The position numbers and the translations under genes were made by a program. This document shows, one piece after another, positions 3,544-50,970 of a DNA stretch of 57,494 nt; position 1 is the first letter of the stretch; each line of letters begins with the position of its first letter. The stretch is from Candidatus Gastranaerophilales bacterium (GTDB lineage: Bacteria; Cyanobacteriota; Vampirovibrionia; Gastranaerophilales; Gastranaerophilaceae). The notes beneath the pieces were generated by a model. It did no database searches, was not told the origin of the DNA, and saw only the letters and a program-made list of their open reading frames with translations. The stretch spans positions 1-57,494 of the forward strand of contig CALUPN010000001.1 of NCBI GenBank assembly GCA_944322625.1, written 5' to 3'.

Positions 3544-3618
3544 ACGCTTGTCATCCAATGGTTAGGGTGCTGGTCTTATACACCAGTTATCTAGGTTCGA
3601 ATCCTAGCGAGCGTACCA
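3544..3618 (+). tRNA. tRNA-Ile(UAU)
   Basis: Acceptor ACGCTTG/CGAGCGT, anticodon arm CTGGT-CTTATAC-ACCAG, GGTTCGAATCC, CCA end. Confidence 0.9.
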
Positions 3619-3621
3619 AAT

Positions 3622-3695
3622 ACACGGATAATTTAAAGGTAGAATATTGATCTCCAAAATCAATTGTATAGGTTCGAGTCCTAGTCTGTGTGCCA
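3622..3695 (+). tRNA. tRNA-Trp(CCA)
   Basis: Acceptor ACACGGA/TCTGTGT, loop CTCCAAA, T arm, CCA. Confidence 0.9.
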
Positions 3696-3698
3696 TAT

Positions 3699-3775
3699 TG
3701 ACGAATGGAGAAATTGGTAAACTCACTGGTTTTTGGCACCAGTATTTGATAGTTCGAGTCTATCTTCGTCAGCCA
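3699..3775 (+). tRNA. tRNA-Gln(UUG)
   Basis: Acceptor TGACGAA/TTCGTCA, loop TTTTGGC, CCA. Confidence 0.9.
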
Positions 3776-3780
3776 TGTTT

Positions 3781-3857
3781 TGCGGGTTGGTAGAAGTGGT
3801 TATCTCGTCGCCCTCATAAGGCGAAGTTCGTTGGTTCGAATCCAACATCCGCAACCA
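3781..3857 (+). tRNA. tRNA-Met(CAU), initiator-like body
   Basis: Acceptor TGCGGGT/ATCCGCA, arm TCGCC-CTCATAA-GGCGA, CCA. Confidence 0.85.
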
Positions 3858-26279: not shown

Positions 26280-27069
26280 ATTTTATTTTGGCATGGAAAC
26301 AATGCGAATCACACAAAATTATAACGGAACGGCTAGCCATTATAATCATTCTCATGGTACACCAGTTGATTATCCAATTGATTGCGCAGGTGTAGATGGC
26401 AAGCAGAGTGCTTATTTTGCTCCGGTTGACATGAAAGTGGTTGCTATCCGTGGAGTAGGTAACTACGCAACCAATACAATATGGCTAGAAACAACAGAAA
26501 CGGTTCAAACACCGACGTTTAACGATATTGTATGGCTAACACTAACACATTGGAATGACGGCTCTATCACGTCTAAATTTAAGTCTGGCGACATAATCAA
26601 AGCAGGTGAAATTATCGCTTATGAAGGAACCGACGGAGCAACCGCAAATCACTTACATGTGACATGTGGCCGTGGTCATTGTAACTCATGGACAGAAAAT
26701 ACAAAAGGTTCATGGGTAATGAGTGGTACATCACTTCCACCAGAAGATGTTATGTATATTAATGACGATTTCACAAAATGCGTAGATTCTGGTGGACTGG
26801 TTTTCAAAAGTATGCCTAAAAACGACACAAACACGTCAAATTCTAACGAAAACACATCAGGACAGTCAAACACTAAGACCAAACGAGTTGGTGTCACAAA
26901 CGGGCTTTATTTGATGAAATTAGACAACAGTGCAAAAATTACACTTATGCCACATAACGCTACTGTAAAGATTCTTCAAGAGAATTATACAACCGCAAAA
27001 GGTTATGCTATGGATAAAGTTGAATACAACGGAACAGTTGGTATGTGTGCAAATAAATATTTAAAATAG
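26272..27069 (+). CDS. Endolysin: M23 peptidase with C-terminal SH3b-like domain
   Basis: H...PID and HLH zinc ligands; linker; YNGTVGM..NKYL end. Confidence 0.8.
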   Translation: MNKFYFGMETMRITQNYNGTASHYNHSHGTPVDYPIDCAGVDGKQSAYFAPVDMKVVAIRGVGNYATNTIWLETTETVQTPTFNDIVWLTLTHWNDGSITSKFKSGDIIKAGEIIAYEGTDGATANHLHVTCGRGHCNSWTENTKGSWVMSGTSLPPEDVMYINDDFTKCVDSGGLVFKSMPKNDTNTSNSNENTSGQSNTKTKRVGVTNGLYLMKLDNSAKITLMPHNATVKILQENYTTAKGYAMDKVEYNGTVGMCANKYLK

Positions 27070-27090
27070 TTAGGGAAACCTAACTTTTTT
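27068..27090 (+). terminator. Intrinsic terminator of the late operon
   Basis: AGTTAGG-GAAA-CCTAACT plus T run. Confidence 0.8.
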
Positions 27091-27145
27091 ATTTGTTTTA
27101 CTTTTTACCGATTTCGTGCTATCATAATTCGCAAGGAGTGAGATA

Positions 27146-28369
27146 ATGAAAAAAGATTTGGATAAGATTTTATCCAGTACATTGAAAACATATTTTATCA
27201 TTTTAATTGGAATTGTCGTTGTAAAATTATTCGGATTCGATTACTTTGGATTAGACACTAGCAACGAAATAATCATCATGATAGATAATTTTATAAAAAC
27301 GTTCCATTTGAAATTAGTATGGTATGCTATTACATTATATATTTACCAATACGTGATATTCAGTATTACTTGTGTTGATAACAGTAAAGCAATGAAATTA
27401 TACACACTATACACGTTACCAATAGCAATTACCATACAATTGTTAAAAACACAAATTAATGCACCATATTTATTTGCAATTATTGATTTATTATGGTTAT
27501 TTATGTTTTCTATATTGTATATTAAAATGGTAAAAAGAAATAAAATTGAAAAGTATAACGTAAGTAATTATTGGATATATTGTGTAGTCAATATGATATT
27601 TCAATTACTAAGTATGTTTATTAGAAACATAGATATGTCTGTGGATTATAATAACTTTATAATGTCGTTTGTTGGTAATATTGATTATATAATATTATCC
27701 ATTATGTTTTACACTTACTTTTATTTAAAAGGAGGTAAGTCATTATGGGATGGGGTAGTTTCTTCTTTTTCGCACCTACGGACTTTATTAAGAACTTTGC
27801 CAACAAAGTTGCAAAAGTTTTATCTAAATAATAAAGCCAAAAGTAGATTCGATAAGATTTCGGACTGTATTTACATTCCATTGTTCTTACTTTGGAATGT
27901 TTTTACTTTATTAGTAATCTTATTCGTAGCAACGTTAAATCATACTTTTGTTGAATGTATTATCATCGCCACTAGTTTTTGGATAAACAAGAAAACATTT
28001 GGCAAGCCATTCCACATGAAAACAGCACTTAGTTGTTTTATGGTTTCCAATCTTACATATTATTGTTTGAATAGAATCACGATTCCGAATGGAATATCGT
28101 TAATAGTCTCCGTTTCACTTGGTATCGCATTATGTTACATGACAAGCAAATTTGTAAAGAGCAAGAAGTTATACCGTGGTATGTCAATCGAGGAATACGA
28201 CAAAGTTGTATTACCTTCATATTCTATAAACAGTATCTACTATGAAATTGGTAAATTGTTTTATGTAGACCGTTATAGCGAACAATGGATTGCAAACAAG
28301 TTATCCTATTCTATCCCTAGCATTCAAAAGAAAAAGTATGAGTTGAAAAACAAAGTGAAAGGACAATAA
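27146..28369 (+). CDS. Polytopic membrane protein with AgrB-like peptidase domain and C-terminal HTH
   Basis: FGKPFHMKTALSC has the AgrB His-x6-Cys dyad spacing; YSEQWIANKLSYSIPSI HTH. Confidence 0.7.
   Translation: MKKDLDKILSSTLKTYFIILIGIVVVKLFGFDYFGLDTSNEIIIMIDNFIKTFHLKLVWYAITLYIYQYVIFSITCVDNSKAMKLYTLYTLPIAITIQLLKTQINAPYLFAIIDLLWLFMFSILYIKMVKRNKIEKYNVSNYWIYCVVNMIFQLLSMFIRNIDMSVDYNNFIMSFVGNIDYIILSIMFYTYFYLKGGKSLWDGVVSSFSHLRTLLRTLPTKLQKFYLNNKAKSRFDKISDCIYIPLFLLWNVFTLLVILFVATLNHTFVECIIIATSFWINKKTFGKPFHMKTALSCFMVSNLTYYCLNRITIPNGISLIVSVSLGIALCYMTSKFVKSKKLYRGMSIEEYDKVVLPSYSINSIYYEIGKLFYVDRYSEQWIANKLSYSIPSIQKKKYELKNKVKGQ
27745..27831 (+). CDS. Nested 28-aa AgrD-like peptide MGWGSFFFFAPTDFIKNFANKVAKVLSK
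   Basis: Perfect AAGGAGGT RBS 8 nt upstream; alternative frame inside the AgrB-like gene. Confidence 0.6.
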   Translation: MGWGSFFFFAPTDFIKNFANKVAKVLSK

Positions 28370-28436
28370 AGTCCTTTTTATTATGCTTTTTTATGTTTTA
28401 TTTTAGATAAAATTATATTAGAAATGAGGTAAATTT

Positions 28437-28679
28437 ATGTTAGATAAGAAAACGTATCTTGCGATGAAACGCGAGATTAAATGTGTTTGTCGCAAAAACC
28501 TAAAGGAATTATGCGAAATTATGGAATTTGATGACTTTGAAAAGGAACTACTTTTCAAGTTTTATGATGGCGACACCGTACAAAAGATTTGCATGGATTT
28601 ATGTATATCGGCTATGACGTACAATAGATATATGCACAAAATATTATCCAAAATATACAATTATAAAAACACCCATTAG
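28437..28679 (+). CDS. Sigma-region-4/LuxR-type HTH regulator
   Basis: GDTVQKICMDLCISAMTYNR. Confidence 0.7.
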   Translation: MLDKKTYLAMKREIKCVCRKNLKELCEIMEFDDFEKELLFKFYDGDTVQKICMDLCISAMTYNRYMHKILSKIYNYKNTH

Positions 28680-28811: not shown

Positions 28812-29168
28812 TCATTTCACTATCCAAGCATTTTCGGCAATTTTATCACGAGGATCAAAACTGTCATATATTACACCATACTTTGAACAAGTTATATGGC
28901 CATTCATTGTTATTAGTAATATGTTGTCTGGATAATCTTCTGCTACTTCCCCCACTGTTTCGGATAAGTATGGAACTTCTTCGTACTTGGTTGATAAATA
29001 TCTATTTATAAAATTTCTATCATCCATCATAGTACCTTCAAATTGTGCGATGTCGCTAAGGTGTTCATAAACGTCATCCCAACTCTTTCCAGTTGCCATG
29101 GAAATTGACCTTACGGTACAATCGTTCTCAAACAATCCTCTAGCATTTGCATTGTAAAATCTATACAT
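28812..29168 (-). CDS. Conserved phage protein (DC.VR...GH...DS.D; possible Cys-His-Asp peptidase fold)
   Basis: NDCTVRSIS, GHIT, YDSFD motifs. Confidence 0.6.
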   Translation of the reverse strand: MYRFYNANARGLFENDCTVRSISMATGKSWDDVYEHLSDIAQFEGTMMDDRNFINRYLSTKYEEVPYLSETVGEVAEDYPDNILLITMNGHITCSKYGVIYDSFDPRDKIAENAWIVK

Positions 29169-29707
29169 TACATCTCACTTATTTCTCTTGCGTATTTTTT
29201 AATCATTTCCATTTCTTCTTGCAAACCAGCATCTTCTTTTAGCATATCGAAGAAACAAACGACACTTTCAAGCATATATTTTAGGCTTTTCATAGTATCT
29301 TCTTTTGCACCATATCCACGATTATACTGTTCTTTATCTTCTGCATAATCTTGGTAATTACGATACATTTCTTCCATAGTATCGTCGCCATGGTATCTTC
29401 CACCACGTCCACCTTCCATGTATCTGCCTCTGGAATCTCTTCTTCTACGTCCATAACTGTCGTCGTACATATCACGACCAGATGAACCTCTACCATACAT
29501 ATATCTCATATTATCCTCCTTCTCTTTCCAATATTCTTCATTTTCGATATCCTTATGAATATCGATTACTTTATATAATATATCAACATTATCGCTTCTA
29601 AGACCGTCTTTGATGATTTCATTCATCATTTTTTCGGTTTCTTCTTTGACTTGATGTATTATATTTTTATTTTCGGTTTGTTCCATATTTTCATTCATGG
29701 TCATCAC
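29168..29707 (-). CDS. Conserved hypothetical protein with RRRRDSRGRY motif
   Basis: Low-complexity R/G/Y/D core. Confidence 0.7.
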   Translation of the reverse strand: MMTMNENMEQTENKNIIHQVKEETEKMMNEIIKDGLRSDNVDILYKVIDIHKDIENEEYWKEKEDNMRYMYGRGSSGRDMYDDSYGRRRRDSRGRYMEGGRGGRYHGDDTMEEMYRNYQDYAEDKEQYNRGYGAKEDTMKSLKYMLESVVCFFDMLKEDAGLQEEMEMIKKYAREISEM

Positions 29708-30172
29708 CTACGATTTCTTAGTAATTGAGAAATTAGCATTTTGAATAACCGGTACTTCTGTAACAGTTGCCGTTCCAGGTGCTTCATCGCCTGTTAGAAT
29801 GCTAGGTACTGATTGTACTGTCAACGTAGCATCGCCACGGCAACAAATGCGAAGTTTCTTATCAAATGAAATATTTACATAATCACCGGCGGTTGTAATC
29901 TGTGCAATCATCGTTGTTCCTGGTACTAATACACCGTCTTGATAAAGTCCTAAAGAAACTGTTCCTGCAACTGATGATGTAACATTTGCATTAAATGAAA
30001 CTTCATAGATTCCACCGCATAATATTTTATATAATGGCGAACCTTCATTATGTTGCAACCAACCGTTGCAATAGCAATTAGCACTTCTTGTTCTCAAATC
30101 GTCTACACTAAATGGAACACTAGCAGAGTTGCTAGTTAATGCTGTGATAGGTTCTAAAACGCTTTGTATCAT
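29708..30172 (-). CDS. BclA-C/C1q-like beta-sandwich protein
   Basis: GIYEVSFNANV motif, Cys pairs. Confidence 0.6.
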   Translation of the reverse strand: MIQSVLEPITALTSNSASVPFSVDDLRTRSANCYCNGWLQHNEGSPLYKILCGGIYEVSFNANVTSSVAGTVSLGLYQDGVLVPGTTMIAQITTAGDYVNISFDKKLRICCRGDATLTVQSVPSILTGDEAPGTATVTEVPVIQNANFSITKKS

Positions 30173-30288
30173 ATTATCAATCCTTTCTTTATAAAATAAA
30201 AGAGATAGGACTTGCCTATCTCAAATTGGTCGATTTCGACCAAATTAGCAAGTTCCTGTAATCAGGTTAGTCTGTTAGACCTATGCTA

Positions 30289-31080
30289 TTAAATTACTGT
30301 TCCATTACAACCGCACGTGCTATAGCAACAGTTCGGGTTTGGAACAACGTATGCTGGGATAGGGCAAGCCTTTAATTGGTTAAGTAAGTAAGTGTTTTGT
30401 GCTTCTTGGCTTGCTTTCAAACGTAGAGCATTAATTTCGTTTTGTTGTGAAGCAATTTGTGCATTCTTATCTTCGATACGGTTAGCAACAATTTCATCAT
30501 GCAATGCACGATAATTTGCATTTTGATTATCAATTAAATCTCTAGTATTATTACATAATGTTTGTTGAATAGCATTTGTATTCATAGCCATATTGTAATT
30601 AATTCCGTCAATGCCACGTTGTGTTTGGCAGCCGTAATCAGAAATTTGTTGTCTTAAAGTACAGCAACAGTCTGCTAACTGACTAGACAATCCTTGAACA
30701 CCTAAACGAGTTTCATATCCATTAGTTGTAATGGCTTGATTAATACCACTAAAACCTTGACATAATGTTTGTTGCGTTGCTGCGAAACCATTTGTCATAG
30801 TGTTGTTTAGTGCAAACGTACTATCACATATACCATTTGAAATCGTATCTAGTTTTCTATCAACCTGTGCAAAATCGCTAGCCAAAACGTATCCGTCTGT
30901 AACTCCACCATAGTTTCCACCGAAGCCACCGCCAAATCCGTTTCTTCCATAACCAAAGATTAGGAAAAGTATAATCCACCAGGCTCCGTTGTTTCCCCAG
31001 CCATAATTGTTGTTATTTCTGTTAGTTCCAGTTATTAATGCAACGTCACTTGGGGATAAAGCACCATCACTATAATTCAT
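30289..31080 (-). CDS. Gly/Asn/Cys-rich membrane-anchored coiled-coil protein
   Basis: WWIILFLIFG, ADCCC, Cys-rich tail; GGAGG RBS gives ATG 31080. Confidence 0.75.
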   Translation of the reverse strand: MNYSDGALSPSDVALITGTNRNNNNYGWGNNGAWWIILFLIFGYGRNGFGGGFGGNYGGVTDGYVLASDFAQVDRKLDTISNGICDSTFALNNTMTNGFAATQQTLCQGFSGINQAITTNGYETRLGVQGLSSQLADCCCTLRQQISDYGCQTQRGIDGINYNMAMNTNAIQQTLCNNTRDLIDNQNANYRALHDEIVANRIEDKNAQIASQQNEINALRLKASQEAQNTYLLNQLKACPIPAYVVPNPNCCYSTCGCNGTVI

Positions 31081-31264
31081 ATTCTGACCTCCTTTTATTA
31101 TTTTAAATTCCTCATCTTTACCAAAACCCACACGTGTGTTATAATATAAGTGTTCAGTTAAGAAAAAAGGAATTTATATAAATGTATTATTACGGTCTTA
31201 ACTGAACATTAAACCCCGCAATAGTGCATTTATATAAGTTTCTTTTTATTTTGAGGAGGATATT

Positions 31265-31780
31265 ATGAGAGAAATATTTAAAGACATAAAGGGTTATAAT
31301 GGTTTATATCAAATAAGTAATTGCGGAAAAGTTAAAAGTTTGAAAAGAAATATAATTTTAAGGCCATCAGTTAACCATAAAGGATATTTGCATGTAATTT
31401 TATATAAAAATGGTAATTCTAAAATAGGTAGAATACATCGTTTGGTTGCAGAAACATTTATACATAATCCAGAAAATAAACCTCAAGTCAATCATATTGA
31501 CGGAAACAAAAGAAACAACAATGTTAATAATTTAGAATGGGTAACAAATAGTGAAAACCAAAAACACGCTTTTAAAACGGGATTACAGACTAATAAAGGT
31601 AATAATAATCCACGTGCAAGAAAAATAAATCAATACAATCTAAATGGTGAATTAATAAAAACGTGGAATAGTTGCTATGATATCACCAAAAAACTAGGTA
31701 TAGATAGATCGTCTATTTGGAGATGTTGTGTAGGAAAATGCCATAAAAGTCATAATTATATATGGAGATATGCTGAATAA
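31265..31780 (+). CDS. NUMOD4-HNH homing endonuclease with C-terminal NUMOD1-like domain
   Basis: YQISNCGKVKS, HRLVAETF, VNHIDGNK.NN...NLEW. Confidence 0.9.
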   Translation: MREIFKDIKGYNGLYQISNCGKVKSLKRNIILRPSVNHKGYLHVILYKNGNSKIGRIHRLVAETFIHNPENKPQVNHIDGNKRNNNVNNLEWVTNSENQKHAFKTGLQTNKGNNNPRARKINQYNLNGELIKTWNSCYDITKKLGIDRSSIWRCCVGKCHKSHNYIWRYAE

Positions 31781-31792
31781 AGCATATCTCTT

Positions 31793-32029
31793 TTATTTAA
31801 AATTACTCATAAACTGTGAAAACTCCTCGTCATAATTTCTCCCTTGACCTTTTAATAAATTTCTAGCAAAATTTTCTAATCCTTTTGTATCTCCATTCTG
31901 TGCCATTTTTATTAAATTTACGAAAATGGGATTCGTGTTGTTCATGAGTAATTGAGATGCCACTTCTTGTGGATTTTTTCCACCTAATAATGTTTTTAAA
32001 TTTGGATTTGAATTGTTCATATTAATCAC
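31793..32029 (-). CDS. Conserved hypothetical protein
   Basis: NPQ...NP...MAQNGD..GLENFARNL. Confidence 0.7.
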   Translation of the reverse strand: MINMNNSNPNLKTLLGGKNPQEVASQLLMNNTNPIFVNLIKMAQNGDTKGLENFARNLLKGQGRNYDEEFSQFMSNFK

Positions 32030-32477
32030 CTTTATCGTCTAAATTCAATTGGATTTCTTTGATTTGTTTTTTTATCGATTTCATTTCATCTTTAATAGTT
32101 TTCAAATCTTCACTTGCATCTAATGATTGTATTTTTTTATTCAATTCGTCAGATGTTACATATGTTATTTTTGCTTGATCATCGCTTTCAACAGGTTTAT
32201 AAATAACAGTTTTACTAGTTCCGTCAGTTTGAATCTTTTTTGTTACAATGGCACTACCGTCAGTTAATGGGAAATAACTTGTACTTCCGTCTAAAGGAAT
32301 GTCCATTGCTTTTACAACATCAATACTATCGACTGATTTACCTAGTAATCCCATTGTCTGTTGTTGACGTGGTTGCATATAAGGTTGATTGTTAATTGGT
32401 GGTGTTTGCATATTTTCCATTGGTTGATACCTTTGAGGTGGTACATAATAAGGGTTATAATTATTGAACATATTCAT
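32022..32477 (-). CDS. Conserved hypothetical protein, Q/P/Y-rich N-terminus
   Basis: IPLDGS.SYF...DG motif; GGAGG RBS. Confidence 0.75.
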   Translation of the reverse strand: MNMFNNYNPYYVPPQRYQPMENMQTPPINNQPYMQPRQQQTMGLLGKSVDSIDVVKAMDIPLDGSTSYFPLTDGSAIVTKKIQTDGTSKTVIYKPVESDDQAKITYVTSDELNKKIQSLDASEDLKTIKDEMKSIKKQIKEIQLNLDDKGD

Positions 32478-33121: not shown

Positions 33122-34204
33122 TTAATCTTCTCCTTTTTCTTTTACTTTTGTTAATCTGTATGTAATACTATCTTTCATATAATTTTCATATGTCTTTGGA
33201 TGGTCTTGCTTGAATAATTTTTCGTCAAATTTCTTGCTTACCGTCCCACTTAATTTATATGTTCCATATTGTACTTTTGTTTCATTTTCACCAAGCAATT
33301 CCATCATTTTTTCTTTAATTGAACTTTCCACAGTTTTTAATGTTTTTTCTAAATCATCAAGTGAATTATTCTTACGAATAGTATTAATTTCATCTTGTAA
33401 GAAACTTGCATAATTTATCAGAGAATCTAAATCATTATCGTTACCTGGTTGTGTTTCTCGCATGATGTCTAAGTATTCTTTGTCTTTTATTTCATCAAAT
33501 CTTGGTGAAACTCCATTTTCAATATGATTATTCCACCACTCCTCACAATATTTTATGATATCTTCAAATGTCATTAATTTTCCATTTACATCAACAACAA
33601 TATCTTTTAATTTCTTAACAACAATGATTGTATTTTTTTCTGTTGGCTTGAATTGTTCAGGATGATTGTAATCGTCATCTTGCAAGAAGGCACATATAAA
33701 CACGATACGATCAATACCTTTTAAGTAAGCATATTCTGCACCTTGTAACAAATATGTAATTGGAACATTATTGTTTTCCCATTCCTGTGGCTTTGAACTC
33801 GTCTTACATTCTATAATTGCCGTAAGTGTTTTCATATCATCTTCTGTACAAACGGCGTCCATTACACCACCGAAAACGTTGCTATCGTTTACAAAGTTAT
33901 TATATCTATATGTATCAATGTTATTTCCATAGTATTCTTCAATACTCATTGTATTTGGAAATTTTTTTGCAATTAAATCAATAAGTTTTGGCTCAATTGC
34001 TTTACCAGCCAAAGTATATTTGGTATCTTCAAACGGTAATTTTACTAACTTTGTAATTTCTGCCCAAGCACCGAATGGTGTTTGATACGGATTAAGTCCT
34101 AGAACACTAGCCATTCTATGACCAGTGATTCTAAGTCTTTGTTTTGGTGGTTCATTCAATACAATATGTTGTCTATCTTCCGAATAGTTCCATTCCTTAG
34201 CCAT
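33122..34204 (-). CDS. YqaJ/lambda-Exo-like exonuclease
   Basis: ASVLGLNPYQTP, G..IEP, D...IECKT. Confidence 0.85.
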   Translation of the reverse strand: MAKEWNYSEDRQHIVLNEPPKQRLRITGHRMASVLGLNPYQTPFGAWAEITKLVKLPFEDTKYTLAGKAIEPKLIDLIAKKFPNTMSIEEYYGNNIDTYRYNNFVNDSNVFGGVMDAVCTEDDMKTLTAIIECKTSSKPQEWENNNVPITYLLQGAEYAYLKGIDRIVFICAFLQDDDYNHPEQFKPTEKNTIIVVKKLKDIVVDVNGKLMTFEDIIKYCEEWWNNHIENGVSPRFDEIKDKEYLDIMRETQPGNDNDLDSLINYASFLQDEINTIRKNNSLDDLEKTLKTVESSIKEKMMELLGENETKVQYGTYKLSGTVSKKFDEKLFKQDHPKTYENYMKDSITYRLTKVKEKGED

Positions 34205-35048
34205 TATTTTCTACCTCTTTTAATTTCTTTTTTACTTTTAAATCAATTTCAAGAATATCTGCCGAACTTAATGTTCCGCTCATAAGTTTATTTAATGTTG
34301 GTGTTCCATATTCTTGATTACCAGTTAATTCTCTAATTTTCATAATATTTTCGCATACCGCTTTAATATCTTCTTCATCACTAGGTTCTTGTTGAACTTG
34401 TTTTACTACTTCTTGCTTAATTTCCTCTTTCTTTTTTTCTGGTACATATACAGGTACTTTTGGTTTTGATTTTTCTTCCGGTTCTTCAATCTCTTCCTCC
34501 AGAACATCTTTTGGTGTAAAGTTTTTATAGAACCAATTTCTAAACGCCATTGAACTTGCACTAGCAACCGCTTTGTCAATGGTATCACTACCTTGTGCAA
34601 TTGTGATATATTCTTTGCATGCTCCTGTTTCTAAATCTGTAAATGTTGCAACAGTTTTAACAGTTGCTACATGAATCGGAAGTGAGTTTGCAGGTTTTGT
34701 TAGTTCTTTATCAAATTGAATTAAATCTGTTGTTTCAAATGAGAAGTCAAGACCAACTTCAATTGCTAATTCTTGAATCGCATCATAGAATTGATCAATA
34801 CTATAATAATCTCCACCACCCAAAATCTTTGGTAATTCTTTATCTAGTACGAATTTTCTTTCTCTTACTCTCTTTCTAAATTCATTTAACTTTTTAAGTA
34901 ACATAACTTTCATTGTTCTTTCATCATATTCTTTTACTTCTTCCACCTTTTTACTTTCTCCTTTCATTTTATTTACCATGTCCATTAATTTTTCGTTCTG
35001 TTCCATGGACGTTTGTAATTTTTGCTCTAACTCTTGTTTTGTAGCCAT
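34197..35048 (-). CDS. ERF-like ssDNA annealing protein (internal start)
   Basis: Own promoter and AAAGGAG RBS before MATKQ; G.D..DKAV..A.S.A.R motif. Confidence 0.7.
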   Translation of the reverse strand: MATKQELEQKLQTSMEQNEKLMDMVNKMKGESKKVEEVKEYDERTMKVMLLKKLNEFRKRVRERKFVLDKELPKILGGGDYYSIDQFYDAIQELAIEVGLDFSFETTDLIQFDKELTKPANSLPIHVATVKTVATFTDLETGACKEYITIAQGSDTIDKAVASASSMAFRNWFYKNFTPKDVLEEEIEEPEEKSKPKVPVYVPEKKKEEIKQEVVKQVQQEPSDEEDIKAVCENIMKIRELTGNQEYGTPTLNKLMSGTLSSADILEIDLKVKKKLKEVENNG

Positions 35049-36014
35049 ATCTTTTTCTCCTTTCTGTATGTTATTATTGTAGCATAATATATCATAGTAG
35101 TCAATATTTTTTTTGTCATTTTCAATTATTTTTATTAGTTCTTCTTTTTTTGTACTTTTATCAACTTGTAATCCCAAATTGGAAGCAATCTGCAAAAGTT
35201 CTTCTTTCTTATATTCTTCAAGTCTTTTAATACCAAGGAAATCGTTTACCCGTTTGTTTGCTAAGTCAATATACCATTCTTTATTAATATCGTCAATCTT
35301 ACATTGATTTGCATTATCTACTATCGGATTCGGAGGTTGATTCGCCAAACTATCACGTCTACCATCCGGTTTTACTTTTATAATCGCACCACTTGAAATA
35401 TTACCTGCATAGATACGATTATTTCTTTGAAGTTCAATATCTCCATTTGGTGATTCTTGCACGCATTTTTCATAAGTAGAGCCAAGATGTGATATGATTT
35501 GGAAACGAAATATATCATCGCACTTATTAATTGTTTCCTCCGTTGGAATATCAAAAAGTAATTTTTTTAATATTGCTTCGGATACGATCGTCATAGAATT
35601 ACTTTTCAAATCATCTTTAAATTTGTAATGAAAAACGTGTTTTTCTTTATCCCATGTAAATATATGTTTTCCTGTGAAGTTTCCACCTTTATAGTTTACC
35701 TTGTAATCGTTATTTCCAGTCTGTACGATTTCGACGTAATTATTGACATCTCGCATGATTATTTTTACAACTTTATCTTCTTCTAATTCAAGTCCAGTTA
35801 GTTTTTGCCAATCGTCGAGTACTTTATGGGCTTGTTCTTTATATTCTTCATCTACTTCATATAAAATTGCATCTGTGTTGCAGCTAATTGTTTCCAATGT
35901 TGGTACTGTTTTTAAATCATATATTAATTGTAATATAAATAATTGTCCTGTGGTACATATACTAAATCCTTGTAAATTATCATATAAATCATTGAACTTC
36001 GCTCTAAGACCGCC
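34197..36014 (-). CDS. DNA polymerase (family B-like) C-terminal part, in frame with the ERF-like protein
   Basis: GGLRAKFNDLYD...GQL, NTDA motif C, RDVNNY; frame open upstream of track start 35897. Confidence 0.75.
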   Translation of the reverse strand, partial: GGLRAKFNDLYDNLQGFSICTTGQLFILQLIYDLKTVPTLETISCNTDAILYEVDEEYKEQAHKVLDDWQKLTGLELEEDKVVKIIMRDVNNYVEIVQTGNNDYKVNYKGGNFTGKHIFTWDKEKHVFHYKFKDDLKSNSMTIVSEAILKKLLFDIPTEETINKCDDIFRFQIISHLGSTYEKCVQESPNGDIELQRNNRIYAGNISSGAIIKVKPDGRRDSLANQPPNPIVDNANQCKIDDINKEWYIDLANKRVNDFLGIKRLEEYKKEELLQIASNLGLQVDKSTKKEELIKIIENDKKNIDYYDILCYNNNIQKGEKDMATKQELEQKLQTSMEQNEKLMDMVNKMKGESKKVEEVKEYDERTMKVMLLKKLNEFRKRVRERKFVLDKELPKILGGGDYYSIDQFYDAIQELAIEVGLDFSFETTDLIQFDKELTKPANSLPIHVATVKTVATFTDLETGACKEYITIAQGSDTIDKAVASASSMAFRNWFYKNFTPKDVLEEEIEEPEEKSKPKVPVYVPEKKKEEIKQEVVKQVQQEPSDEEDIKAVCENIMKIRELTGNQEYGTPTLNKLMSGTLSSADILEIDLKVKKKLKEVENNG

Positions 36015-36016
36015 AG

Positions 36017-36247
36017 TTAAGTGTACGCATTTAGGGGTAACTTAAGACCAGATTTTAAATCATCATTAGTAAGTCCTAAAGGCTTTAAAAAATCTTCTGT
36101 TAGTTTTCCTTTTTTTGCTTTCATACGCATAGAAAGCAAATTTACATAAGCATCCTTATCTTGTTGATTTCGACTCGAATAACCGTACAATCTTACTAAA
36201 TTAGGATAAAGTGAACTCACATCCCAGTTCTCCAAAATACGTGTCAT
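36017..36247 (-). CDS. DNA polymerase middle fragment (motif A and start of motif B)
   Basis: DVSSLYPN and KLPLNAY. Confidence 0.85.
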   Translation of the reverse strand: MTRILENWDVSSLYPNLVRLYGYSSRNQQDKDAYVNLLSMRMKAKKGKLTEDFLKPLGLTNDDLKSGLKLPLNAYT

Positions 36248-36855
36248 TATTCATCACCCCCATCCTCGACATACTCAAAAGACCATCCAAGATATTTCTT
36301 ATGTGTTTTGCATGATTCTGATATTCCTCCTCGTTTTGTTTTCACACAAAATATACCTAGTGAACAAGAAAAAATACTATCGAATAACAACACATTATCA
36401 TCTTTTTTTGCTATTACTTTTTTTGCTTTTATTTTACCTCTACCTTTAAATCTTCCATCATATTCATATTTATAATATTTCTCAGTGTTTTCTTTATTCG
36501 TTAACCATTGTAAGTTATCAACTCTATTATTTAATGAGTTATTATCTATATGGTCTGCTATTGGTTTATTTTCTGGATTATGGATAAATGCTTCGGCAAT
36601 CACTCTGTTAACTCGTCTATAATAATGTTTACCATGAGCTTTTAAATCAACTTGATAATAACCATCTTTTTTTAAAAGTTGTTTTAATATTCTTCCATTC
36701 TTAGAAGTACCATTTCTAGGTATTGTTTTTATTCTTCCATAGTTACTACATACATAACAATCTGGAGCATCTACAACTGGTTTCCAAATTTCATTAGGCA
36801 AATCTTCAAGATTAAGCCATCTATCAGTATTCACGTCAATATCGATTAATCGCAT
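36247..36855 (-). CDS. NUMOD4-HNH homing endonuclease inserted in the polymerase gene
   Basis: EIWKPV..Y.CSNYGRIK, DHIDNN..NN..NLQW. Confidence 0.9.
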   Translation of the reverse strand: MRLIDIDVNTDRWLNLEDLPNEIWKPVVDAPDCYVCSNYGRIKTIPRNGTSKNGRILKQLLKKDGYYQVDLKAHGKHYYRRVNRVIAEAFIHNPENKPIADHIDNNSLNNRVDNLQWLTNKENTEKYYKYEYDGRFKGRGKIKAKKVIAKKDDNVLLFDSIFSCSLGIFCVKTKRGGISESCKTHKKYLGWSFEYVEDGGDE

Positions 36856-37709
36856 TTGAAATCACATCCGTTATCATATTTATACGTGGTTAGTTTTGCA
36901 CCATGTATTCCACCATGACCCAATTGTATCACACATTCATCATACTGTAAAGATGGTGCTATACTTTCGTAGTTTAAATCATTATGCTTTATAACGTCAT
37001 CTATATAATTTAAGAAAGACTTCGGTATTTTCGATTTATCAACTTGCTTTGGATATACATACTTAAACGGATCATCATGATTCTTTCTTTTTGCTCCCAG
37101 TAACACTGATGTTAGTTTCGCATCAGTCAAACTCATTCCATATTTCAAATCCATTTTTCCAAGTCTTGCAATAATATATTTTGACTTATATTTATTTATC
37201 AACATTTCAAATATTGGAAACAATGCTTGAACATCACAAGTACAGTAATATAGTACTTCCTCATATTGTTCTTTCGTCCATTTTGTTGGTAAATCAAAAG
37301 GAACAGTTGTTTCAGTAATGTTTAACCTTAACGAGCCTTCCAATTCCTTTAAGGATTTCCTAGGAACAATTTCATTGAACAAATCCCACATGATTGGAAG
37401 TTCCATATATCCGCAATCAATATCCCAACCATTTCCTCCACCAATAATGTAATCGCTGACATCTTTTATTTCTTCTGGTGTATATCCCGCAAGCAAGCAT
37501 TTCAATATATACTTATCGTATGCGTTACAGTTATATCCCATAAGAATTGGTTTCTTTTGGTCTAAAAAATTTTGTACGTCATTTGGTAACGAATTATGAA
37601 AAACAAATCTTTCTTTTGTTCTATACGATATAAAAACAAATAGTGTATCGTGGGCAAACACTTCACAGTCGAATCCGTATAAGTTATCTAACAATTCATC
37701 GAAACTCAT
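36846..37709 (-). CDS. DNA polymerase N-terminal 3'-5' exonuclease fragment
   Basis: FDCEVF (ExoI), GYN..YD (ExoII), YC..DV (ExoIII), GGIHG. Confidence 0.85.
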   Translation of the reverse strand: MSFDELLDNLYGFDCEVFAHDTLFVFISYRTKERFVFHNSLPNDVQNFLDQKKPILMGYNCNAYDKYILKCLLAGYTPEEIKDVSDYIIGGGNGWDIDCGYMELPIMWDLFNEIVPRKSLKELEGSLRLNITETTVPFDLPTKWTKEQYEEVLYYCTCDVQALFPIFEMLINKYKSKYIIARLGKMDLKYGMSLTDAKLTSVLLGAKRKNHDDPFKYVYPKQVDKSKIPKSFLNYIDDVIKHNDLNYESIAPSLQYDECVIQLGHGGIHGAKLTTYKYDNGCDFKCD

Positions 37710-48613: not shown

Positions 48614-49333
48614 CTAATCCAAGTCAGACCATATATAATCTGATAATAAATTTCTGAATATTGCTTGTAAAACATTAACAACTATACTATTACCAGCTTG
48701 TTTATATAATTGTGTATTGGAATTAACTTTTTCTGCTTTATCAAAATCTTCATCATCAAATCCCATAAGTCTCCAAGTTTCCTTTGGTGTTAATTTTCTT
48801 ATTCTTAAATTATTAGTTACGCAACCAATATCAGGGCTTGTTTTTAATGTTGGTATCATTTCTTTTTGAACTGTACCTCTTTTTTTATCTATATTTGATA
48901 TATAAACACCGTTACCGTCAGTTGCTTCTAAATAACCTTGTTTAGTAGCATTTTTTATTAATAATGTATTTCCACTCAAACTAGTAGAACCTATTTTTGT
49001 TGTTAAACAAGGTGACAATCCGTTTTTTCTTATTCTCAATCCTTCGTCATATCGATAGTCTGCAACTACACATTTAGGATCTTTCCAATCCCTAGCACAT
49101 AAAGTATCACAATATTCTTTTTCTTGGATACGTCTATTGTTCTGATGAAATGTACTACATCTTATTTTTTCAATTTGTTCATCACTCAAATAGTATTTTT
49201 CATCAACATCATCCTCAAGGATGTCTTTTAATTTTAATTTTAACTCTTGTTTTGGTGGGAAAATAAAATTTAATTTTTTTATCTTTCCTTGTTTTTCTAA
49301 ATCATTTAATATATCTTCACACTTTTTATACAT
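48614..49333 (-). CDS. C5 cytosine methyltransferase, C-terminal part (TRD, motifs IX-X)
   Basis: RKLTPKETWRLMGF, YKQAGNSIVV; AGGTGG RBS before ATG 49333. Confidence 0.85.
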   Translation of the reverse strand: MYKKCEDILNDLEKQGKIKKLNFIFPPKQELKLKLKDILEDDVDEKYYLSDEQIEKIRCSTFHQNNRRIQEKEYCDTLCARDWKDPKCVVADYRYDEGLRIRKNGLSPCLTTKIGSTSLSGNTLLIKNATKQGYLEATDGNGVYISNIDKKRGTVQKEMIPTLKTSPDIGCVTNNLRIRKLTPKETWRLMGFDDEDFDKAEKVNSNTQLYKQAGNSIVVNVLQAIFRNLLSDYIWSDLD

Positions 49334-49847
49334 ATATCCACCTGTAACCTTTAACACTTCTTCGTTTTCCTTTACAACACTCACATATACTAGAAGTACT
49401 TATATTATTTTCCCGTCCAGCATCACTCATAGATTGATAAATGGTTTTTACACCATCTTTATCTATTCTAGCCACTTTTACTCTTGTTACGGTTATCATT
49501 TGTTCCACGTTTTTATGTTTTTCAGTTGCATATTCTTTTTCTCTATTTTCTCTCCAAGTAACTATTCTCATATTATCAAAAGAATAACCCTTACTATCGT
49601 CTAACCTATCAATAGATGGTACATCATCACTATTATAATTATTTAATGTCCAATTTTTAAAAAGAGTTGTAAATTCATCATAATAATTATCAATAATCCA
49701 TTTTTCTAAATCCCACCTATCAAAAGTCAAATCTCTTCCAAATTTTACTCTTTCTCTTTGTTGCATTCTTTTATAATGTGTATTAAACCAACCTGTCAAG
49801 GTGTACTTCGTTTTATTATATAATTTTTTATCTCTACTGTTTCCCAT
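49326..49847 (-). CDS. HNH-type endonuclease (SIDR.D family) with NUMOD1-like tail
   Basis: PSIDRLDDSKGYSFDNMRIVT; YQSMSDA...ICECCKG. Confidence 0.8.
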   Translation of the reverse strand: MGNSRDKKLYNKTKYTLTGWFNTHYKRMQQRERVKFGRDLTFDRWDLEKWIIDNYYDEFTTLFKNWTLNNYNSDDVPSIDRLDDSKGYSFDNMRIVTWRENREKEYATEKHKNVEQMITVTRVKVARIDKDGVKTIYQSMSDAGRENNISTSSICECCKGKRRSVKGYRWIYV

Positions 49848-50364
49848 CTTCTCTCACTCCTATAATAAAAATACGTTCTCTATGTTGGGGAATAGGGTCT
49901 GGATATCCTACTTCACAAGCATTTAACACATCCATAGTTACTTTATAACCATTGTCATTTAAAAAACTCAAATATTCCTCTAGTTGTGGTCTAAATCTTT
50001 CAGATAATATATTTTTAACATTTTCAGCGATTACATACTTGGGTTTTAACTTACTTATAATTCTCATCATCTCATACATTAATCCACTTCTAGTTTCACC
50101 TTTTATTATACCAGTTTGTTTGCCAGCTAGACTAATATCTTGACAAGGAAAACCACCACATAATAAATCAATATCTACATCTTTATCCCATTTGCAAATG
50201 TCTTGTGGTTCAAAGTTTGTATTATGAATAGCATTAAAACTTTTTACTGCATACTTATCTATTTCCACATAATCCACAATCTCAAAATCTATCCCTAATC
50301 TTTCAAGTGCTTTACTACAAGCACCTATTCCACCGAAAAGTTCTAATATTTTTAAAGTTTTCAA
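49834..50364 (-). CDS. dcm: C5 cytosine methyltransferase, N-terminal part (motifs I-VIII)
   Basis: ELFGGIG, GGFPCQD, ENV, QHRERIF. Confidence 0.9.
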   Translation of the reverse strand: MKTLKILELFGGIGACSKALERLGIDFEIVDYVEIDKYAVKSFNAIHNTNFEPQDICKWDKDVDIDLLCGGFPCQDISLAGKQTGIIKGETRSGLMYEMMRIISKLKPKYVIAENVKNILSERFRPQLEEYLSFLNDNGYKVTMDVLNACEVGYPDPIPQHRERIFIIGVREDGKQ

Positions 50365-50415
50365 ATTTACACCTCCTCAAACACAGTTTATCTCATTTTT
50401 CATTTTATAAATCAA

Positions 50416-50970
50416 TCATACTTCATTTCCCCAGCAATCCCATCCATCTGCTTGTTGCCTGGCAAATAGTTCGATCCGTGGTAAATCTCCAAATAATTGC
50501 ACGATTCTATCTCTAGTTTCGTCTGGTTTTCTGCTATGTTCTCTTATTTTTGATAATATTACTTGATGAACACTTCTGCTAACTCGTTTTAAAGGTTTTC
50601 CTTTTGTTGCTAACAAACATAATTCGGCATTCGCTCGAGTATAATGCCCCATACCCCAAAATAAACTGTTTTTTGTTTTGTTTTGTTTTATCCAAGTAAA
50701 ACCAATTGTTTTATATTTGAATCCCCACACATCTATTACTTTCAATCCTTCTTGTAAGCAAGGTGCTGTAACCCACAAAAATAACACACAATCTTTATCG
50801 GATATTCTATCTATTGGTAAATCGCATATATCGTTGACATCCATAGTTTTATAATGGCTTTCTGCAGTCCTTCCCGTTCCATTATTTTTTGGCCATACTT
50901 TATACGACCATGGTGGATCTGCATAAATTATCTTATATTTTTTGTTGGTGTTATAAATGTCAATTTTCAT
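50416..50970 (-). CDS. MT-A70 family adenine methyltransferase
   Basis: YADPPW, LFLWVT, HSRKP, ELFAR, WGNE. Confidence 0.92.
   Translation of the reverse strand: MKIDIYNTNKKYKIIYADPPWSYKVWPKNNGTGRTAESHYKTMDVNDICDLPIDRISDKDCVLFLWVTAPCLQEGLKVIDVWGFKYKTIGFTWIKQNKTKNSLFWGMGHYTRANAELCLLATKGKPLKRVSRSVHQVILSKIREHSRKPDETRDRIVQLFGDLPRIELFARQQADGWDCWGNEV

Follow-up and report, generated by a model that had tools for sequence, protein, structure and literature searches.

A gene in the window (the whole stretch of DNA analyzed, 57,494 nucleotides) encodes a membrane protein with an AgrB-like peptidase domain, and a preliminary description, made from the letters alone, held that a second gene, for an AgrD-like peptide, lies hidden in another frame within it. 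The locus raises the question of whether this short frame is a gene and, if so, how its product would be processed and what would respond to it.

A peptide gene nested in a fused AgrB-like gene

The preliminary description had pointed to a perfect ribosome binding site in the linker between the two membrane domains, followed by a start and a stop codon in another frame, and these elements are present as described: the Shine-Dalgarno (SD) sequence AAGGAGGT, found in a single copy on the plus strand of the whole window, precedes ATG at 27745 by an 8-nt spacer, and the frame closes with TAA at 27829-27831 (Table 1). The translation is MGWGSFFFFAPTDFIKNFANKVAKVLSK. The nested gene underlies residues 200-229 of the host protein, a basic cytoplasmic helix that forms the linker between the N-terminal domain and the AgrB half. 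Searches with the peptide returned 0 families from Pfam (E<=0.5) and PHROGs (E<=0.01), a 28-aa query having little power.

Table 1. Features of the locus and its surroundings, in window coordinates
Feature	Position	Strand	Remark
Four consecutive tRNA genes	3544-3854
Terminator-like hairpin after the endolysin gene	27068-27085	+	sequence scan
Sigma70-like promoter match upstream of host gene	27097-27125	+	consensus match only
Host gene, 407 aa, ten predicted membrane helices and helix-turn-helix (HTH)	27146..28369	+	predicted model
N-terminal six-helix membrane domain, aa 1-195	27146..27730	+	candidate receptor or exporter
SD AAGGAGGT of nested gene	27729..27736	+	host frame reads K-G-G
Nested gene, 28-aa peptide	27745..27831	+	frame +2 of host gene
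Predicted ring S5-F-F-F-F9	27757..27771	+	putative Ser nucleophile; Phe9 putative cleavage and closure residue
C-terminal follower, A-P-T-D and Lys-rich amphipathic helix	27772..27828	+	likely membrane anchor
Half-size AgrB peptidase domain, aa 236-324	27851..28117	+	PF04647
His290 codon; Cys297 codon	28013-28015; 28034-28036	+
C-terminal sigma-region-4/KorA-like HTH, aa 345-407	28178..28366	+	fold match (VIA)
Terminator-like hairpin at host gene end	28357..28378	+
Direct repeat TTATGC-n4-TTATGT	28381..28396	+	candidate HTH operator
-10-like stretch behind direct repeat	28408-28419	+
80-aa HTH gene behind candidate operator	28437..28679	+	GerE E 0.004, below cut-off
Conserved phage module of unknown function	28812..32477	-	clusters in 55 and 50 loci

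The host protein

The host protein, for which 463 homologs were found, is modeled with high confidence (pLDDT 93.3, pTM 0.86). Its AgrB domain matches PF04647 with an E value of 5.3e-6 (26.3 bits against a cut-off of 23) over positions 17-104 of the 185-position profile and is short of the full-length ~185 residues; stand-alone forms of the half-AgrB have 142-162 aa. The catalytic His-x6-Cys, formed by H290 and C297, is present in 95 of 95 sequences and in 46 of 48 distant full-length representatives, P0191 and P0206 being the only two that lack it. The His/Cys loop has a mean net charge of +3.1 in the 95 sequences, on the cytoplasmic side, and charge averages also assign loops 77-84 and 127-140, the linker, and the HTH to the positive side. 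Positive-inside charges thus place the catalytic loop, the linker, and the HTH on one cytoplasmic side.

The C-terminal domain superimposes in VIA on 8jzt_A (Z 9.0, rmsd 1.6, 56 residues aligned) and on KorA 5clv_E (Z 8.7, rmsd 2.3, 64 residues aligned), so that the model has a sigma-region-4/KorA-like fold, with predicted DNA binding. Membrane-tethered one-component regulators of the ToxR/CadC type likewise join a membrane sensor to a DNA-binding domain and do not make their own ligand; the likeness of the host protein to them is one of description only.

The N-terminal domain (N-domain) consists of six helices, with the N terminus inside as judged by charge, and has the conserved intramembrane residues Q153, R160, and D180. 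No family was found for it in PHROGs or among PDB sequences, and its best Atlas value was 0.84. Foldseek returned no PDB match to the whole host model at E<=0.001, and the best PDB fold match of the N-domain in VIA was rhodopsin (Z 6.6, rmsd 5.0, 124 residues aligned). The top match in BFVD was a 429-aa viral protein labeled AgrB (E 0.003), which is likely a member of the same family. Comparison with the AgrC of the chromosomal locus L113, the one AgrC compared, gave an hhalign probability of 0.8%. The idea that the N-domain is the missing half of AgrB moved to the front gained no support from the comparisons made.

Conservation of the nested frame

The locus set comprised 127 loci and the window. 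After L002 and L003 (copies of the window) and L010 (no long matching ORF) had been left out, 125 had a matching long ORF; another 11 (L008, L011, L012, L029, L031, L037, L096, L101, L105, L110, and L111), whose ORFs fail to cover the linker, were removed to give 114 linker-spanning loci, although L008 and L012 nonetheless show the peptide. Conservation in homologs, which the preliminary description had named as the check on its claim, was found for both elements: an ORF of 22-33 codons in frame +2 occurs in 114 of 114 loci (101 distinct ORFs), and an SD match of at least 6 nt precedes 95 of the 101. When both frames were allowed, frame +2 was chosen in 112 of 114 loci, and L053 and L106 carry the ORF 7 nt further on. 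All but one of the distinct ORFs (100/101) start with ATG.

Every distinct ORF contains the motif S/T-x3-F-[AGSP], with Ser (89) or Thr (12) at the nucleophile position, Phe at +4 in 101/101, and a small residue (A, G, S, or P) directly after the ring at +1 in 101/101. The codons are mixed (Ser, AGY 71 and TCN 18; Thr, ACN 12; Phe, TTC 52 and TTT 49), and the host-frame residues that overlap the Phe codon vary. Acidic residues follow at +2 to +4 (E at +3 in 65/101, D at +4 in 52/101), and the follower helix has K at +16 in 88/101 and A at +14 in 87/101. The ring-like S-FFFF-AP segment that had been singled out is thus upheld in its Ser/Thr and Phe; its Pro is not conserved (at +2 in 24/101), the small and acidic residues being the conserved features there. 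The reversed layout that had been proposed, ring first and amphipathic helix second, was borne out: 2-10 residues precede the Ser/Thr, and 86 of 100 tails exceed their own shuffles in amphipathicity at p<=0.05, with a mean net charge of +3.1 (in the window, the helix has a hydrophobic moment of 0.71 and a net charge of +3). About half of the peptide family has a bulky second residue. The 101 genes encode 34 ring variants, resembling in this the agr specificity groups, and 92 distinct combinations of ring and N-tail.

Of 621 control windows placed elsewhere in the same genes, 0 combined an SD of this kind with a start in another frame and at least 20 codons; a looser motif appeared in 8 of the 621, none with an SD. 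When host codons were resampled with the protein fixed, 0.36 of 95 sequences were expected to retain SD, start, and motif; observed in the same 95 were the strict motif in 94 and the SD in 90, the motif having been defined after the data were seen. The host frame is likewise protected: Leu, Ile, and Val codons ending in TA were found in 0 of 315 cases before A or G, a position in which each would have created a stop in the host gene, and in 102 of 197 before C or T. The host frame would be open by chance in 12.5 of 101 cases, a comparison in which open frames were partly selected for by the sampling, and the third frame is open in 0 of 101. The nested frame is, on these comparisons, practically certain to be a real gene, and the sequence patterns demonstrate that both have remained open under selection, the nested frame and that of the host.

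Split, free-standing, and enzyme-dead forms

In gut phages L004-L013 the host gene is split, gene A overlapping the peptide and gene B encoding the half-AgrB and the tail. Metagenome-assembled genomes (MAGs) of the G061 family contain 14 split loci (11 found by script; L145, L148, and L151 read from printed output) in which the peptide either overlaps gene A, using frame +1 or +2, or is separate; it stands behind gene A without overlap in L144, L147, L149, and L157. Cys takes the place of Ser in 5 of these 14 loci, and 9 have Ser. The fused gene of L141 and L142 lacks a nested ORF and has the peptide downstream of it. The family, in which the peptide is found nested, overlapping, free, or relocated, offers a countable case of two frames under selection.

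L143 (from G110) has lost both His and Cys and has no peptide within 10.4 kb. This copy, together with P0191 and P0206, is catalytically dead and keeps the N-domain and the HTH; the three are possibly receptor-only "solo" forms. LuxR solos, which do not make their own ligand, resemble the enzyme-dead, peptide-less copies by description only.

One locus, L172 (G347), is rearranged, with the half-AgrB and HTH first and gene A with its overlapped peptide further downstream. In a distant fused clade (A8; P0189, P0194, P0195, P0208, P0242, and relatives) the linker suggests a nested peptide in the other frame; searches for this clade found no viral loci, and the 401 genomes contained none belonging to it.

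Relatives at the agr locus of small gut Bacilli

The G061-family MAGs are about 1 Mb and have homologs of spoIID, spoIIQ, and spoIIID. The normal order in this family between tagO and cspA-hpf is agrA, agrC, and a convergent agrD-agrB pair in which AgrD has a canonical leader, as in L183 and L184. L113 and L181 hold both systems, with the fused gene lying between agrA and agrC. The fused gene of 8 further loci precedes an AgrC whose H-box lies at residue 44-131 and not at 241-255. A separate HTH gene comes next in the split form, joined in 8 loci by an AgrA-like protein and no kinase; the acidic pair is absent from this AgrA-like remnant in all 8, and the phospho-Asp in 6 of 8. By sequence, the leftover agrC or agrA has lost its sensor or its phospho-pocket.

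Cassettes were found in 24 of 401 genomes at E<=1e-17, and G161, with a further half-AgrB, brings the number to 25. Full-length AgrB is present in 5 of these 25 genomes versus 263 of the 376 others (counted by hand in incomplete MAGs), and an AgrB match in 293 of the 401, canonical agr being common in ~1-Mb Bacilli MAGs. In a quick tree of 106 columns, the 13 split chromosomal copies included form one clade (98), so the count of 5/25 reflects few events among kin that are not independent; nested chromosomal copies fall among phage-like ones, with at least 3 label changes in this quick tree. By these gene orders, related cassettes in small gut Bacilli lie at the standard agr genes and often replace them. 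Five cassette genomes retain full-length AgrB, a point against the mechanism proposed below.

Candidate operator and downstream genes

Of 85 loci, 73 have a direct repeat with a period of 10-11 bp in the first 60 nt past the host stop codon (12.6 in shuffles; 12/64 in an upstream control), and the repeat is also kept where the next gene is a shortened agrC. By classes set by eye, an HTH recognition helix with GI[RKQ] goes with a TGTAT repeat in 48 of 49 loci and other helices do so in 1 of 36. On a tree from which the HTH was left out, the helix and repeat labels each switch about 7 times; the two lie less than 100 nt apart, and their pairing may be partly due to inheritance as a block. Inspection by eye showed no repeat of this kind behind the HTH gene in chromosomal loci of the split type. 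Altogether, the repeat is a likely site of action of the HTH.

The 80-aa HTH gene is directly downstream in 18 loci and is likely the first target in the clade of the window. In most phage relatives the conserved module stands directly behind the candidate operator; in the window it is inverted, and an HNH gene (31265-31780, opposite strand) interrupts it. The module encodes a Gly/Cys-rich membrane protein of 280 aa, a BclA_C-like protein of 154 aa (E 3.8e-5, below cut-off), and small Asn/Met/Gln-rich proteins, and its genes match only PHROGs of unknown function. In L015, L017, L020, L022, L023, L058-L060, and others, the candidate promoter is separated from the first module gene by a long hairpin (GAAGGAG...CTCCTTTT) at 60-140 nt past the end of the host gene; it has a U-run, and its loop recurs as AAAACAC/AAAACGC. 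It is possibly a leader, an attenuator, or a small RNA, and it had no Rfam match in L014, L015, L023, and L060.

Proposed mechanism and alternatives

The reading that we favor, with a probability of about 0.66, is that the nested product is a leaderless substrate of the half-AgrB and yields a serine lactone, a density signal read through the HTH of the same host protein. The locus would then best be read as a kinase-free variant of agr with a leaderless precursor. That the peptide is a substrate of the half-AgrB is very probable from the sequences compared, and L143, without His/Cys and without a nearby peptide, counts toward the favored reading. A lactone is the probable product: exchange of Ser, Thr, and Cys at one position, together with the invariant His and Cys of the host, supports lactone chemistry. 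Ring closure is a prediction, and against closure by a half-AgrB stands the partial span of the profile match (17-104 of 185). The chances that the N-domain is the receptor are even; it shows no similarity in the hhalign comparison with the AgrC of L113, so the case for that role is drawn from topology and gene replacement.

The basic amphipathic tail would dock the precursor on the inner leaflet, replacing the job of the AgrD leader. Cys297 and His290 would cut after Phe9, and Ser5 would attack the acyl-enzyme to give (M)GWG-cyclo[SFFFF] in one step and with no second protease; with the amphipathic anchor behind the ring, AgrB's own cut would release the finished product. The preliminary description had proposed such a release with no leader removal, and the comparisons support that interpretation, in which cleavage, closure, and release are predicted steps. 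The lactone would leave the cell and bind the six-helix N-domain in AgrC's stead, which is the least certain step. A change in how far the tethered HTH occupies the downstream direct repeat would control the next operon, which is the 80-aa HTH gene and phage module here and the remnant agrC or agrA in chromosomal copies. The HTH, the repeat, and the relatives at agr loci, none of which figured in the preliminary description, probably turn a "peptide factory" into a complete signaling unit.

An improbable alternative is that the lactone is aimed at the host's own AgrC, activating or jamming agr and possibly altering the timing of sporulation, with the N-domain as an exporter or scaffold. In the likely host family the rings of canonical AgrD, too, consist of five hydrophobic residues, and full-length AgrB occurs in 263 of the 376 family genomes without the cassette; an exporter or scaffold might replace the C-terminal helices missing from the half-AgrB, with which the N-domain packs in one confident model (pTM 0.86). 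Chromosomal copies, however, persist where AgrC is gone or sensor-less, and the dead copies L143, P0191, and P0206 retain the N-domain and HTH, as a receptor-regulator would. A shade less probable is that the peptide acts inside the cell, either bound to the membrane regulator as its inhibitor or timer, or through a released Lys-rich helix, cleavage being perhaps plain hydrolysis with neither ring nor export. Exchange of Ser, Thr, and Cys four residues before an invariant Phe suits ring closure and is unneeded for hydrolysis, and ring and N-tail diversify like signals, both of which weigh against an internal role; the fixed co-expression provided by nesting, the marked hydrophobicity of the ring, and a helix as conserved as the ring weigh for it. 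A programmed -1 frameshift at the SD and T-rich run, by which the host protein would terminate early, or a mere by-product of host conservation, is largely refuted: frame +2 equals -1 and SD-like sequences are able to stimulate frameshifts, but there is no conserved slippery run (6 T in only 4/101), the start is conserved at SD distance, free-standing peptide copies exist, and conservation of the host would account for only 0.36 of 95.

Around the favored reading of a self-read lactone, a wider proposal can be made, although tentatively, with odds somewhat short of even: that the locus is a one-gene quorum circuit, with the precursor in one frame and synthase, receptor, and transcription factor in the other, which is mobile between phages and chromosomes of small spore-gene-bearing gut Bacilli. 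In the latter it would have repeatedly captured the place of agr and would now control transcription of what is left there, a kinase without its sensor or a pseudo-receiver AgrA, and the enzyme-dead copies would be eavesdropping solos. If right, agr-type cyclic peptides could be made from a leaderless precursor in one step by half an AgrB, with no kinase in the readout, and the locus would provide a compact peptide-cyclizing enzyme and a minimal test system for the roles of the leader and of the C-terminal half of AgrB and for peptide exit from the cell. It would also stand for a family of signals, widespread in phages and gut bacteria and overlooked by gene callers, with 34 ring variants among its 101 genes.

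Comparison with known systems

Known AgrB cuts after the ring and closes the ring on a Cys, requiring H77 and C84 in S. aureus and acidic residues after the cut (PMC10196373); the AgrD precursor has an N-terminal amphipathic leader of 24-25 residues, and S. pseudintermedius provides a precedent for a Ser lactone (PMC12312760); the leader is removed by MroQ (PMC9388083). Staphylococcal and clostridial agrB/agrD share with the present locus a Cys/His peptidase, a nucleophile four residues before the cleavage residue, a five-residue hydrophobic ring, acidic residues just past the ring, present here in many but not all members, and many ring variants (PMC12312760, PMC10196373, PMC9388083). Unlike AgrD as described there, the nested peptide has no N-terminal leader, so no MroQ step would apply, and its follower is basic and amphipathic instead of a charged acidic tail; unlike AgrB, the enzyme is half size and fused, and the phage has no AgrC/AgrA. 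By sequence the locus would work like agrBD but falls outside AgrD/agr on three counts, the leader, the enzyme size, and the kinase.

The fsrB/fsrD genes of Enterococcus faecalis likewise hide a propeptide gene in a reading frame long ascribed to its processing enzyme and yield a Ser lactone, here predicted; fsrD is in frame at the 3' end, whereas the nested gene is out of frame and mid-gene with both frames constrained, and Fsr uses FsrC/FsrA (PMC7028047). Clostridium difficile phage phiCDHM1 carries phage-borne agrB and agrD homologs in agr3, although these are separate canonical genes with a histidine kinase, and neither nesting nor an HTH fusion is mentioned in the abstract (PMC3901668). 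Divergent AgrD-like small genes are described from gut metagenomes (10.1101/494179). In the mostly open literature searched, we found neither a leaderless precursor encoded out of frame nor an AgrB-HTH fusion described; small-gene catalogues may list the peptide.

The phage contig and its neighboring genes

The window is a circular 57.5-kb tailed-phage contig with a 77-nt terminal repeat and genes for a portal, a capsid, an endolysin, and its own DNA polymerase. Although it was binned in MAG G000, this genome is probably not the true host, given the GC gap (31.6% vs 35.8%), the circularity of the contig, a match in 0 of 60 relatives of G000, and the lack of mbl and spoIIQ matches in G000. The agrA and agrC of L113 matched nothing in G000, window included, by tblastn at E<=1e-4. 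GenBank phages gave no match; of 16 GTDB contigs with relatives, 9 are titled "Bacilli bacterium".

A close relative is intact in contigs of chicken-gut run X1, and the stretch with the nested gene is unbroken in contigs of 3 of 4 public runs, which rules out an assembly artifact. In the relative from run X8, a patch of 105 nt (window 27637-27743) is swapped for 102 other letters; it ends just 5' of the nested ATG, a mosaic exchange of the last N-domain helix and the SD. Neither a tyrosine integrase nor a serine recombinase was found on the window contig, which makes a classical lysis-lysogeny switch an improbable output.

On a consensus match only, the host gene may be its own transcription unit behind the endolysin hairpin; promoter matches on the window overall show no excess over shuffles (16 vs 13.8). 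In L014, L023, L060, L082, L092, and others, a terminator-like hairpin with a U-run, absent in the window, lies between the host-gene promoter and the SD. An Rfam scan found only tRNAs. Two other genes on the minus strand of the window are split by HNH/endonuclease ORFs, possibly within introns: the DNA polymerase gene (34197-37709, ORF 36247-36855) and a DNA methyltransferase gene (48614-50970, ORF 49326-49847).
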